Both the position numbers and the translations under genes were made by a program. A DNA stretch of 63,940 bases, filler included, from Octopus bimaculoides (lineage: Eukaryota): assembly GCF_001194135.2 (NCBI RefSeq). It is 7 parts of 7 records of this genome, joined end to end, with 100 filler letters (N's around TTAATTAATTAA, not from the genome) between each part and the next. Parts side by side here need not be neighbours in the genome. Positions count along the whole stretch, not along the records: positions 23,276 to 44,311 come from NC_068987.1; positions 44,412 to 53,678 come from NC_068982.1; 5 more parts are not named here. One strand, written 5' to 3'. A model generated the notes under the pieces. It was not told where the DNA came from. It searched no databases and saw only the letters and a program-made list of their open reading frames with translations. This document shows positions 26,960-44,900 of this stretch, piece after piece (the first letter of the stretch is position 1; the number at the start of each line of letters is the position of its first letter).

Positions 26960-27210
26960 ATAGGGGGAGAATTCGCAAAAGAAGATAGGAAAAGACGAAG
27001 ACAGGTGGTGTAGACAACAAACAGATGTATTAGTTTAACGCTCGGGAAGTAAAAAAAGTCTTTAACGTTTCGAGCCTATGCTCTTCCACAGAAAGGAACA
27101 CAGAAAGAAACAGGGAGAGAAAATAAAGAATGTGTAGTGGCTAGTGATCTATCATGGCGAATGTCGGACAGAGGGGTCACACAGGAGAGCTAGGAAGAAG
27201 GGAAGATAAT
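26960..27210 (-). mobile_element. Short hammerhead-bearing repeat (Penelope pLTR-like), copy 1
   Basis: Homologous to 31583-31770 (-) and 44702-44900 (+). Confidence 0.75.
27060..27095 (-). ncRNA. Minimal type I hammerhead motif, CUGUNGA core variant
   Basis: CTTT CTGTGGA A GAGC-atag-GCTC GAAAC GT T AAAG; palindromic ACGT stem III. Confidence 0.65.
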
Positions 27211-27327
27211 AAAGTAGTCTGTATTCAGTACATTTTCAAAAGTATATTAAGATTAACTTGAAAATAATAACCTGAATTAGCACGCGCGCACAGACACACA
27301 CACATACATACATACATACATAATGTA

Positions 27328-27555
27328 TATTTCTTTATTGCTCACAAGGGGTTAAACATAGAGGGGACAAACAAGGACAGACAAAGGGATTAAGTCAATT
27401 ACATCAACCCGGTGCGTAACTGGTACTTTATTTATCGACCCAGAAAGGATGAAAGGCAAAGTCGACCTCGGCGGAATTTGAACTCAGACCGCTAAGCATT
27501 TCGCCCGGCGTGCTAACGTTTCTGCCAGCTCGTCGCCATAGCCAGCTCGCCGCTT
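27328..27555 (-). mobile_element. Near full-length SINE B
   Basis: TTTCTTTATTGCTCACAAGGGG tail through GCGTGCTAACGTTTCTGCCAGCTCG head. Confidence 0.85.
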
Positions 27556-27980
27556 TGATAATGTGTAATCATGTCTGCATGTATGTATGTATGTATGTAT
27601 GTATGTATGTCATCAGTTAGTTGTCAATGCGTCAGAAAAGAAAAGCACACTCAATGAGTAATAGAACGGTTATGTTTTATACTTTTGATATACGGCTCGN
27701 NNNNNNNNNNNNNNNNNNNNNNNNNNNNNNNNNNNNNNNNNNNNNNNNNNNNNNNNNNNNNNNNNNNNNNNNNNNNNNNNNNNNNNNNNNNNNNNNNNNN
27801 NNNNNNNNNNNNNNNNNNNNNNNNNNNNNNNNNNNNNNNNNNNNNATATATGGGGTGGTTCCTGTGGGTATGCGCACGTGTGAACGCTAATTATCTCTAT
27901 ATATTTACTGGTCTATCCGGCTAAGTTTTGTACCTTCGTACATACGTATACATATGAGTGTGTGCACTTATAATATATAT

Positions 27981-28030
<50 letters not shown>

Positions 28031-28499
28031 TAGCTAACATTTGTGTTTGTTTAAAATGATGTTGTAACCTAATCTGCTTGCTGACAATTACAAGTAGTTT
28101 AGCATATTATGACTCACGCCTAAATCATTCCAGCTTCCTTCTTAATTCTTTCTATTCGTTGTCAGCAAACGGTTTCGTATCATAACTCAGCAGTCAGCGT
28201 TAGTTTACTTCAATATATTGTGCTACCCCTCAGCTGTCATGCCCTGCCAGAGTTAGGAGTAGGATTAACGTTAGATTTTAGATTTTATCATTACCGTTAC
28301 TTCACTATATCGTGCTACCTTCAGCTATCAAGTCCTAACTTTTGACCCCATATGGTTACAAACTCTAGATGTATAAAATTACGCCATGCTATTGTCATCC
28401 AGATCAACTCGGCCTGGGAGTTGGAGTAGTCACTAACAAGAAGGTACCAGTCAAATACTGAGGTCAACTGTTTTGCACCATTATCATTTTCTGGCCTTG

Positions 28500-28818
28500 A
28501 AAAGCGGCAAAATGCTTTGCGATATTTCGCCCGTCTTTACGTTCTGGGTTCAAATTCCGCCGAGTTCGACTTTGCCTTTCATCCTTTCGGGGTCGATAAA
28601 ATAAGTCCCTGTTAAGCACTGGGGTCGTTATAATCGACTTATCCTCCTCCCCAGAAATTGCTGGCCTTGTGCTAAAATTTGAAATCAGTATTTTCTGGCC
28701 TTATCCCTATGCTAAAAATAGTTATATGGCAACATCGTTTGAACATCGGCGAAAAATCTGTTTGCTGAATTTGTTCTGCACTTTACGTTCTGAGTTCAAA
28801 TCACACGGAGGTCAACGA
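28500..28818 (+). mobile_element. SINE B copy plus the start of another
   Basis: TTTACGTTCTGGGTTCAAATTCCGCCGAG...GGGGTCGATAAAATAAGT. Confidence 0.8.
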
Positions 28819-29179
28819 TNNNNNNNNNNNNNNNNNNNNNNNNNNNNNNNNNNNNNNNNNNNNNNNNNNNNNNNNNNNNNNNNNNNNNNNNNNNNNNNNN
28901 NNNNNNNNNNNNNNNNNNNNNNNNNNNNNNNNNNNNNNNNNNNNNNNNNNNNNNNNNNNNNNNNNNNNNNNNNNNNNNNNNNNNNNNNNNNNNNNNNNNN
29001 NNNNNNNNNNNNNNNNNNNNNNNNNNNNNNNNNNNNNNNNNNNNNNNNNNNNNNNNNNNNNNNNNNNNNNNNNNNNNNNNNNNNNNNNNNNNNNNNNNNN
29101 NNNNNNNNNNNNNNNNNNNNNNNNNNNNNNNNNNNNNNNNNNNNNNNNNNNNNNNNNNNNNNNNNNNNNNNNNNNNNNA

Positions 29180-29464
29180 AGCCTAGTACTTATTCTATCG
29201 GTCTGTTTTGCCGAACTGCTAAGTTACGGGGACGTAAACACACTACCATCGGTTGTCAAGCGATGTTGGGGGGACAAACACACATACATATATATATGCA
29301 TATATACGACGGGCTTCTTTCAGTTTCCGTCTACCAAATCCACTCACAAGGCTTTGGTCGGCCCGAGGCTATAGTAGAAGACACTTGCCCAAGGTGCCAC
29401 GCAGTGAGACTGAACCCGGGACCATGTGGTTGGTAAGCAAGCTACTTACCACACAGCCACTCCT
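29180..29464 (-). mobile_element. SINE A, tail lost in gap
   Basis: Near-identical to about 26110-26419. Confidence 0.9.
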
Positions 29465-42499: not shown

Positions 42500-42818
42500 G
42501 TGACACTCCGTCGGTTACGACGGCGAGGGTTCCAGCTGATCCGATCAACGGAACAGCCTGCTCGTGAAGTTAATGTGCTGAGCACTCCACAGACACGCGT
42601 ACCCTTAATGTACTTCTCAGGGAGGTTCGGCGTGACACAGTAAGTGACAAGACCGGCCCTTTGAAATACAGGTACTACACATTTTGGCCAGCTGAGTGGA
42701 CAGGAGCAACATGAAATAAAAGTGTCTTGCTCAAGGACACAACGTGCCGCCGGGAATCGAACTCACGACCTTACAATCGCAAGCCGATTACCCTAACCGC
42801 TAAGCCACGCGACTTCAC
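42500..42818 (-). mobile_element. SINE C variant with a different tRNA-like head
   Basis: CACTCCGTCGGTTACGACGGCGAGGGTTCCAG tail; GGGAATCGAACTC B box on the reverse complement. Confidence 0.8.
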
Positions 42819-42831
42819 TATGGATGTAATA

Positions 42832-43020
42832 TCGTTTCTGCTCTAGGCACAAGGCCCGAAATTTTAGGGAAGGGGCCAGTCGATTAGATCAACCCCAGTA
42901 CGCAACTGGTACTTAATTTATCAACCCCGAAAGAATGAGAGGCAACGTCAACCGCGGTGGAATTTGAACTCAGAACGTAAAGACAGACGTGCTAACGTTT
43001 CTGCCAGCTCACCGCCTTAC
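42832..43020 (-). mobile_element. SINE B
   Basis: CTCTAGGCACAAGGCCCGAAAT...GTGCTAACGTTTCTGCCAGCTCACCGCCTTA. Confidence 0.85.
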
Positions 43021-43840
43021 TATGAAAGTAATATAACTGGATAAAAGACGTAATTAGCAAAGGTAGAACGCTTATCTGAGGTATGACCAGCAACACCAAC
43101 CACAACAACAATAGCTAAACCAATACAGGAACTGCCACGTGATCGCTCGACCTGCTGAAAATAGCAACCAAGTTATTCTCAAACCACCTCTTCNNNNNNN
43201 NNNNNNNNNNNNNNNNNNNNNNNNNNNNNNNNNNNNNNNNNNNNNNNNNNNNNNNNNNNNNNNNNNNNNNNNNNNNNNNNNNNNNNNNNNNNNNNNNNNN
43301 NNNNNNNNNNNNNNNNNNNNNNNNNNNNNNNNNNNNNNNNNNNNNNNNNNNNNNNNNNNNNNNNNNNNNNNNNNNNNNNNNNNNNNNNNNNNNNNNNNNN
43401 NNNNNNNNNNNNNNNNNNNNNNNNNNNNNNNNNNNNNNNNNNNNNNNNNNNNNNNNNNNNNNNNNNNNNNNNNNNNNNNNNNNNNNNNNNNNNNNNNNNN
43501 NNNNNNNNNNNNNNNNNNNNNNNNNNNNNNNNNNNNNNNNNNNNNNNNNNNNNNNNNNNNNNNNNNNNNNNNNNNNNNNNNNNNNNNNNNNNNNNNNNNN
43601 NNNNNNNNNNNNNNNNNNNNNNNNNNNNNNNNNNNNNNNNNNNNNNNNNNNNNNNNNNNNNNNNNNNNNNNNNNNNNNNNNNNNNNNNNNNNNNNNNNNN
43701 NNNNNNNNNNNNNNNNNNNNNNNNNNNNNNNNNNNNNNNNNNNNNNNNNNNNNNNNNNNNNNNNNNNNNNNNNNNNNNNNNNNNNNNNNNNNNNNNNNNN
43801 NNNNNNNNNNNNNNNNNNNNNNNNNNNNNNNNNNNNNNNN

Positions 43841-43882
<42 letters not shown>

Positions 43883-44435
43883 AGTATATAGATTCAGAGA
43901 ATCGTATGGCTACCACAGAAAGCTAACAGTCCACATGTCTATTTGCATTGATTTGTAAATTTACTATTGTATTCCATAATGCCAGACACACATATTAATG
44001 CAAACCGAAAAGCATAAATTTCATAAATTTCTTCCACACTGAAATTAATAGTACATGAAGAAAGTTGCGAAACGGCCGAAGTCCTAAGGATGTCACGTGG
44101 TTAAATAGATTTATATTCATCTCTCATACACACACACACACACATATATATACATACATATATATATATAAACAAATAGTAAATGAGTATATGCATATAT
44201 ACGTACAGGTATGTGCATACCGACATCCACCTGTATGTATAGGTGCATATCTGGGTACAGGACATTGCAAACAAAACGTAGACGAGAAAACACACAAGCC
44301 ATATATATATANNNNNNNNNNNNNNNNNNNNNNNNNNNNNNNNNNNNNNNNNNNNTTAATTAATTAANNNNNNNNNNNNNNNNNNNNNNNNNNNNNNNNN
44401 NNNNNNNNNNNTGTGTGTGTGTGTGTGTGTGTGTA

Positions 44436-44636
44436 CGAGAGTGTACTGAAAAGTTCCTAGCTTTTTGAGGGTAACACAAAAGCATGGCAAGATGTATAAC
44501 CTTCCGGATTCTTTTACAGTGATTAGAAAATCTGAAGGACCGCTACAATAAGTGTAGAGGGGAATACGCTGGATAAAATTATAATTAACTGCTCCTCCTG
44601 TATTTTCAAAACCAGGAGCCTTTCAGCGCCCCCTTG
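44436..44636 (+). mobile_element. Internally deleted mariner (MITE-like)
   Basis: TA|CGAGAGTGTACTGAAAAGTTCCTAG ... CCAGGAGCCTTTCAGCGCCCCCTTG TIRs; interior resembles the transposase C-terminus (LENLKDRYNKC..GEY). Confidence 0.7.
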
Positions 44637-44701
44637 TTTACATACATACATACATGCATGCATGCATGCATACATTCATACATACATACATACATACATA
44701 C

Positions 44702-44900
44702 AGATCGCTGACCGCTACATTTATATATTTTTTCTCCTTGTTTTTCTCATTTCTTTCTGTGTTCCTTTCAGTTGAAGAGCGTAGGCTCGAAACGTCAAAG
44801 ACTTTCTCTATTCCCGAGCGTTAAACTAATACATCCATTTGTTGTTTACACCACCTGTCCTCGTCTATTGTTGCTGTTTTTTTTTTCGTAAATTCTCCCA
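44702..44900 (+). mobile_element. Hammerhead-bearing repeat, copy 3, inside (CATA)n
   Basis: Homologous to copies 1 and 2. Confidence 0.75.
44765..44800 (+). ncRNA. Minimal type I hammerhead motif, predicted GUC cleavage after 44796
   Basis: CTTT CAGTTGA A GAGC-gtag-GCTC GAAAC GT C AAAG. Confidence 0.65.

Follow-up and report, generated by a model that had tools for sequence, protein, structure and literature searches.

A Penelope-like retrotransposon family of Octopus bimaculoides whose minimal hammerhead motif carries U at core position 6

The DNA analysed here is a stretch of 63,940 nucleotides, filler included, that joins seven parts of the Octopus bimaculoides assembly GCF_001194135.2 (hereafter the window), and it holds three copies of a repeat bearing a minimal type I hammerhead ribozyme motif. 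By domain layout and protein likeness, the repeat represents the 5'-truncated 3' end of a Neptune-clade Penelope-like element (PLE), a retrotransposon whose autonomous form would measure about 4 kb. Across the family, the hammerhead core has U rather than A at position 6 (CUGUNGA in place of CUGANGA), the other core and stem letters are kept apart from a later U4A change in the youngest of four successive subfamilies, and the predicted cut site is intact in nearly all insertions. The explanation that we favour, at somewhat below an even chance, is that A6 changed to U in Neptune source elements and that the hammerhead is now likely a much slower cutter, its fold and dimer palindrome being kept under selection, as the RNA must stay whole for copying. 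The reason why PLEs carry hammerheads at all is treated as an open question in the literature (PMC8557442, PMC4209133), and the octopus family provides a dated natural series in a single sequence background: A6, C6, U6, and then A4 with U6, with positions 7 and 17 varying.

The hammerhead family in the window and in the genome

The features of the three copies, whose motifs lie with U at core position 6 where an earlier note on this DNA had placed them, are as follows.

26965..27218, minus strand: copy 1, 5'-truncated 3' end of a Neptune-type element of subfamily S3 (192 letters are 94.8% identical to S3's majority sequence; the upstream piece reaches 27218)
27060..27095, minus strand: minimal type I hammerhead of copy 1, core CUGUGGA, U6 at 27088, U17, extra A, stem II GAGC/GCUC, palindrome ACGU, predicted cut 27064/27063
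31584..31768, minus strand: copy 2, old and decayed 3' end nearest the oldest subfamily S1 (best alignment score to S1, 78% identity)
31671..31706, minus strand: decayed hammerhead of copy 2, core CUGUCGA, U6 at 31699, G12 changed to U at 31682, stem II half broken
44697..44899, plus strand: copy 3, 5'-truncated 3' end of the youngest subfamily S4 (182 aligned letters are 97.8% identical to S4's majority sequence; genome place G000:C2:43372728)
44765..44800, plus strand: minimal hammerhead of copy 3 with two core changes, CAGUUGA, A4 at 44770, U6 at 44772, C17, predicted cut 44796/44797
44811..44834, plus strand: conserved CCCGAGCGTTAAACTAATACA-type box, 3' of the hammerhead (across the four subfamilies its 21 sites show 2 changes; recognisable by alignment in sister families)

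The common fold proposed in the note describes copy 1 well (CTTT CTGTGGA A GAGC atag GCTC GAAA CGT T AAAG) but not copy 2 (CTGTCGA A GACT gtaa GCTC TAAA, with C17), where G12U has arisen and two of the four stem II pairs are left. The core CTGTNGA holds in copies 1 and 2, and copy 3 reads CAGTTGA, with U4A added. Approximately 200 letters of flank, ending in (TA)n or another microsatellite, are common to all three. A distance of 4.6 kb separates copies 1 and 2, which share one part of the window, and copy 3 is in another part; rather than having diverged independently from one source, as was suggested, they belong to three successive subfamilies (S3, nearest S1, and S4). An Rfam scan of the window gave no hammerhead among the 150 matches listed of 283, all 150 being microsatellite hits. 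The box GAGCG...AATA at 44811-44834, which is common to sister families, could pair with a CGCU about 50 letters upstream of the hammerhead and extend stem I, or alternatively compete for stem II's 3' strand.

At the genome level, the 30-letter pattern TTTC-N-G-N-N-GA-A-GAGC-N4-GCTC-GAAACGT has 3,841 exact matches and its reversed control none, so the hammerhead repeat is not a chance pattern. A pattern with a free core has 3,255 matches; in the first 100 listed, read by eye, position 6 is U in 97, C in 2, G in 1 and A in none, A4 occurs in 10, and all four letters are found at position 7. Fixing A6 yields 167 matches, about two thirds of the 100 listed coming, by eye, from a sister family whose loop differs; combining U4 with C6 yields 213. 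In a ribozyme-independent set of 39 copies, chosen via upstream DNA or protein and kept if they had at most 6 mismatches to the motif, 38 have U6 and one has C6. The genome-wide consensus at core position 6 is therefore U and not the canonical CUGANGA. As 7 of 38 upstream-chosen copies match the exact pattern, the family may comprise roughly 20,000 copies. Searches with a fixed core miss this most abundant hammerhead-like family of the genome, which has about 3,600 exact U6 matches, where a looser canonical pattern gives 2,243. In addition, the family occurs in contigs from runs of three other organisms, where no other position-6 letter reaches 3% among the table rows listed, and three runs guessed to be RNA hold the element tail as assembled contigs.

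The published consensus of minimal hammerheads is CUGANGAH...GAAAN NUH (PMC4209133). The octopus motif resembles the minimal hammerheads of metazoan PLEs (Cervera and de la Pena 2014, PMC4209133) in its 5' side rich in U, short stem I, additional nucleotide separating position 9 from 10.1, G10.1-C11.1 pair, palindromic 15.2-16.2, lack of loop 3 and H17, as well as in its occurrence mainly as solo copies from truncated elements. It differs in U6 (C in a minority) and in the A4 of the youngest subfamily, whereas all 44 alignment examples compared from that paper have A6, the only core variant among them being U3-A8; the descriptor used there fixes the core and would thus miss a U6 family. An extra nucleotide before stem II is likewise among the conserved features listed in PMC4209133, so the extra A, once taken to be unusual, is ordinary for the class. 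A natural change at position 6 is shared with the A6C hammerhead of phage Bcep176 (Perreault 2011, PMC3088659; Naghdi 2020, PMC7151607), whose core CUGCUGA is identical to that in about one quarter of S1 copies; in contrast to the octopus motif, with U6 in a retroelement of about 10^4 copies, the phage motif is a single sequence with C6 and a normal stem III. Within the ribozyme-independent set, the extra A follows A9 in 36 of 39 copies, the palindrome ACGU is present, and position 17 is A in 21, U in 14, C in 3 and G in 1. G10.1-C11.1 and covarying stems I and II place the motif among minimal hammerheads. Since the core departs from CUGANGA (U6 in 38 of 39, U4A in S4), the motif is filed on sequence grounds as a core variant of the minimal type I hammerhead and not as a canonical member.

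Lunse, Weinberg and Breaker reportedly described in 2017 small PLE-associated hammerhead variants that cleave as dimers; going by title and citation only, that work and the octopus family have in common a short or absent stem III, a dimer model and an association with PLEs. The U6 core is absent from the compared part of the minimal hammerhead alignment (PMC4209133) and from the literature searches, a scope outside which Lunse et al. 2017 and supplement file 1 lie. A search on hammerhead A6U returned only a twister paper, and the part of the PMC8557442 supplement compared holds no U6-type variant. Relative to the published variants compared, the U6 core may be new, a judgement on which Lunse et al. 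2017 may bear.

The parent retrotransposon and the history of position 6

Upstream of the tails, past a CA-rich stretch, lie broken open reading frames (ORFs) that combine reverse transcriptase (RT), the linker CSHPRCRTC, and GIY-YIG together with CCHH residues; in L432, L434, L196, and L187 these lie directly upstream of U6 hammerheads. The nearest full proteins have 850-910 residues and contain RVT_1 and GIY-YIG, domain calls having been made on such homologues of the broken fragments, three of which gave no Pfam match themselves. L432 matches residues 162-884 of protein P0005, ends about 270 letters before a CTGTTGA hammerhead, and contains CSHPRCRTC and CISCSLC plus two His, corresponding to the CX2-5CxxC linker and the CCHH motif; L198 covers residues 27-845 and includes the 5' untranslated region (UTR). 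P0005 has RVT_1 and a GIY-YIG domain that falls below the Pfam cut-off (E 9e-4), and a by-eye comparison likens it to the Neptune1_Ap rows in the supplement of PMC8557442, a paper in which RT, linker, and C-terminal GIY-YIG define Neptune. The family agrees with that clade (Arkhipova 2006, per PMC8557442) in RT, CX2-5CxxC linker, and C-terminal GIY-YIG with CCHH, and also in 5' truncation, partial tandems and (TA)n targets. Its non-canonical core sets it apart, canonical hammerheads being called universal in such clades in PMC8557442.

The assignment of the motif to a PLE terminus thus held up, with an RT/GIY-YIG ORF upstream and fitting stems and palindrome, and the search for an autonomous element bearing this terminus led to the Neptune-type ORF but not to an intact copy: all element copies found are broken, and 20 regions picked for long open frames contained no intact ORF, their long frames being N gaps in a gap-rich assembly. 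One of the family copies has nearby, in L197:800-2173 (+), a 458-residue frame of another Penelope-like RT (DKT, YRDD type), and L445 holds an inverted copy. A loose hammerhead match about 155 letters into the 5' UTR was dropped, as it is without the GAAA half.

The alternative proposal of a retrozyme-like element of 200-250 bp was abandoned, since the tails vary in 5' length and are continuous with the ORF of the larger element. Metazoan retrozymes without long terminal repeats (non-LTR retrozymes; PMC7229834, bioRxiv 10.64898/2026.07.22.740005) resemble the family in that a small number of its units have internal deletions and two hammerheads at a spacing of 420-580 letters (L452, L458, L460, L464). 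The fixed-length tandem unit and canonical hammerhead of such retrozymes are, however, lacking: the window copies are solo tails with minimal motifs, the breakpoints of the deleted units differ, and no amplified tandem family has formed. Internally deleted units in which a piece of the 5' UTR is joined to the 3' tail were noted in L452, L453, L454, L455, L458, L460, L462, L464, L444, L445, and L466; with their differing breakpoints, and some exceeding one unit in length, they represent natural two-hammerhead substrates.

The history of the core was traced by clustering 213 copies on their flanks alone, which gave four subfamilies, with 32 poorly aligned copies and 23 from sister families set aside. 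S1 is the oldest (median 11.8% from its own majority sequence), followed by S2 (CUGUCGA/A17, 7.3%), S3 (CUGUGGA/U17, 6.8%), and S4, the youngest (CAGUUGA/C17, 3.7%). Copies with A6 are concentrated in S1, where 14 of 28 such copies fall, as do 10 of 98 copies that were chosen without regard to A6 (P=1.6e-5). U is nevertheless already the majority letter at position 6 in S1: the hammerheads of the 5'-end loci, whose flanks are of S1 type with one exception, have U in 16, C in 6, A in 1, and another letter in 1, with two degenerate copies omitted, and within S1 the U, C, and A states are not cleanly sorted by flank. Sister families sharing the tail retain CUGANGA (the 2,243 matches above; control 57), for which reason A6 is taken from sequence as the ancestral state, U6 as fixed later and inherited through the three younger subfamilies, and U4A as added in the youngest. 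The earlier suggestion that U6 is ancestral to the family and not decay is right insofar as U6 was inherited from source elements; A6 and C6 in S1 and the canonical sisters indicate that it was not the original state of the lineage.

In six S1 insertions with two hammerheads (L458, L460, L456, L464, L452, L463), the paired motifs differ at position 6 in four (C/U, C/U, U/A, C/G) at 75-85% overall identity. In this small sample, the differences may reflect template jumps combined with parallel sources, or a position that is misread during reverse transcription.

Conservation of the fold and the fate of cutting

Substitutions were counted on the tree (S1,(S2,(S3,S4))) using the four majority sequences. 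The stems, core, and palindrome have 1 change (U4A) in 29 sites, compared with 22 in 84 downstream flank sites (Poisson P=0.004), and changed sites number 1 of 29 and 21 of 84, respectively (Fisher P=0.013). Positions 7 and 17 have changed twice each, with 17 remaining A, U, or C; G17 is found in 5 of 213 aligned copies. In 15 hand-picked related rows, stems I and II are paired in 90.7% of cells, three pairs show two-sided change, and the covariation score is 0.23, against 0.12 for shuffled and at most 0.09 for slid alignments, so that the stems covary between related families. The substitution pattern favours a kept fold over a plain fossil.

A neutral fossil, in which the ribozyme died with A6U and was copied passively while chance and sampling bias produced the apparent conservation, is accordingly an unlikely account. 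Hammerhead patterns were indeed used to choose part of the sample, the 21-letter box downstream has stayed nearly unchanged too, loop II has no change in its 4 sites, and U4A looks like the onset of decay. However, the same fixed letters recur in the 39 copies chosen by upstream DNA or protein, the contigs are without a common non-CpG variant in core or stems except at position 4, and change is concentrated at two positions known to be free (7 and 17).

For the effect of the core change on cutting, A6C serves as a proxy. One ribozyme with A6C cuts at 0.004-0.05/min in 1-3 mM Mg2+; for a second, measured at 0.3 mM, the rate is 3.6e-6/min compared with 0.3/min; and rates in Mn2+ are near normal (PMC7151607); the natural A6C variant is slow and keeps low activity (PMC3088659), and single CUGA mutants had low activity in a deep scan (PMC9901934). 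Nearly all octopus insertions extend about 95 letters beyond an intact cut site to (TA)n, where the tails terminate, which suggests that their templates were uncut or rejoined. Five matches in two patterns were retrieved for copies ending at the cut site, only two of which truly end there. In L313 and L315, (TA)n starts right at the predicted cut site, and these rare cases may derive from cleaved RNA that was copied, or from deletions that arose by chance. Under the favoured reading, the RNA would fold as a dimer through the ACGU palindrome, and priming of reverse transcription would occur at (TA)n, some 95 letters beyond the cut site on its 3' side, with synthesis passing an uncut or rejoined site; because fast cutting would destroy templates, slow cutting may be tolerated or favoured, with some residual cutting surviving.

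An opposite possibility, which we hold improbable, is that the U6 ribozyme cuts in the cell about as well as other minimal hammerheads, assisted by dimerisation, a protein chaperone, or Mn2+, and that the unit RNA is circularised and reverse transcribed by rolling, giving partial tandems. The 30 loci holding the 5' UTR are relevant here, as the 3' end is joined to the 5' UTR via TATATAT in many of them, and the upstream pseudo-LTRs vary in length, those of at least 10 loci including an intact hammerhead, with no pile-up at the cut site. Such pseudo-LTRs and the deleted units of more than unit length (L458, L460) are both predicted by the circle model of PMC4209133, and the Mn2+ rescue of A6C (PMC7151607) would also agree with efficient cutting. 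On the other hand, long uncut transcripts or template jumps give the same DNA structures, the rate in Mg2+ falls by orders of magnitude with A6C (PMC7151607), and canonical minimal hammerheads are already poor cutters in vitro that need dimers (PMC4209133).

Sister families, whose tails are homologous to the present one by alignment, extend the picture. One with loop UCC has 259 exact matches; the first 100 listed comprise, by eye, 57 with G17, 28 with U4C, 14 canonical, and 1 with G6. Its G17 branch has a canonical CUGAUGA core with GUG at the cleavage position (L498-L502, with L203 and L221 from the same pattern), and its U4C branch has the core CCGACGA. Another sister family (L063-L090, e.g., L077:1501-1530) has the core CCGAAGA (U4C) and loop GUCU, and in its stem I one pair is compensated, G-C replacing C-G. 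Judged from these alignments, changes at U4, A6, or 17, which would likely weaken cutting, appear to recur in amplifying lineages with the rest of the fold kept. A wider generalisation, possible yet doubtful, is that PLEs repeatedly turn their own ribozyme down or off, with at least four amplifying lineages here (A6U/C, U4A, U4C, G17) keeping the fold as a structural or dimerisation signal because fast cutting destroys the template.

The most serious competitor to slow cutting, though a less probable one, holds that cutting has been lost and is dispensable, the RNA keeping its hammerhead shape for some other role, for instance recognition by the element's protein or palindrome pairing of two RNAs in tandem-building template jumps. 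It would account for U4A on top of A6U in the youngest subfamily, for changes confined to U4, A6, or N17 while stems, G8, A9, G12, A13, A14, and palindrome stay, for the near absence of copies ending at the cut site, and for the amplification of a sister family with GUG at the cut site, contrary to the NUH rule (PMC11014351); PMC1636495 gives no GUG data. Naiads, moreover, spread without canonical hammerheads (PMC8557442). Against it, C3, G5, G8, and G12 are kept and position 17 has changed twice but never to G in the family, as expected if catalysis still counts, and a natural A6C variant retains low activity (PMC3088659).

Several observations weigh against slow cutting under selection. The hammerhead is not the lowest-energy predicted fold, as monomer or dimer (z -0.5 to 0.1), and the same is true of canonical A6 copies. 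For the conservation test, four majority sequences were compared, most of the copies behind them having been selected with hammerhead patterns; the flanks are not neutral, the P values are modest, and loop II and the 21-letter box are about as stable as stem and core. The cutting rate of U6 is assumed by analogy with A6C, as a literature search for A6U gave no rate. The G17 sister family is an argument that an element can lose cutting altogether, and it makes the survival of residual cutting less credible. The 20 regions mentioned above gave no intact, recently active copy, and 70 loci and 8 longer stretches with sister-family tails revealed no ORF upstream of the tails. With two-hammerhead units and the U4C and G17 sister lineages at hand, a few short RNAs would suffice to test whether amplification tracks the loss of cutting.

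Additional observations

A metagenome scan for CUGUNGA gave 116 stretches, of which 115 were parsed and 9 had both stems. One of these, contig L381 (1163-1540), has a GIY-YIG remnant followed by a minimal hammerhead with core CUGUCGA and stem II GGGC/GCUC; it is not counted as support, as a single copy cannot tell inheritance from decay. In the window itself, an open frame at 53844-54545 (minus strand) resembles, by eye, the C-terminal half of a Hydra-clade Penelope-like protein. Fragments at 10074-10631 (plus), 47292-47819 (plus), and 4981-5741 (minus) resemble Tc1/mariner transposases in their motifs, and those at 11993-13168 (minus) and 51928-52629 (minus) likewise resemble non-LTR reverse transcriptases.

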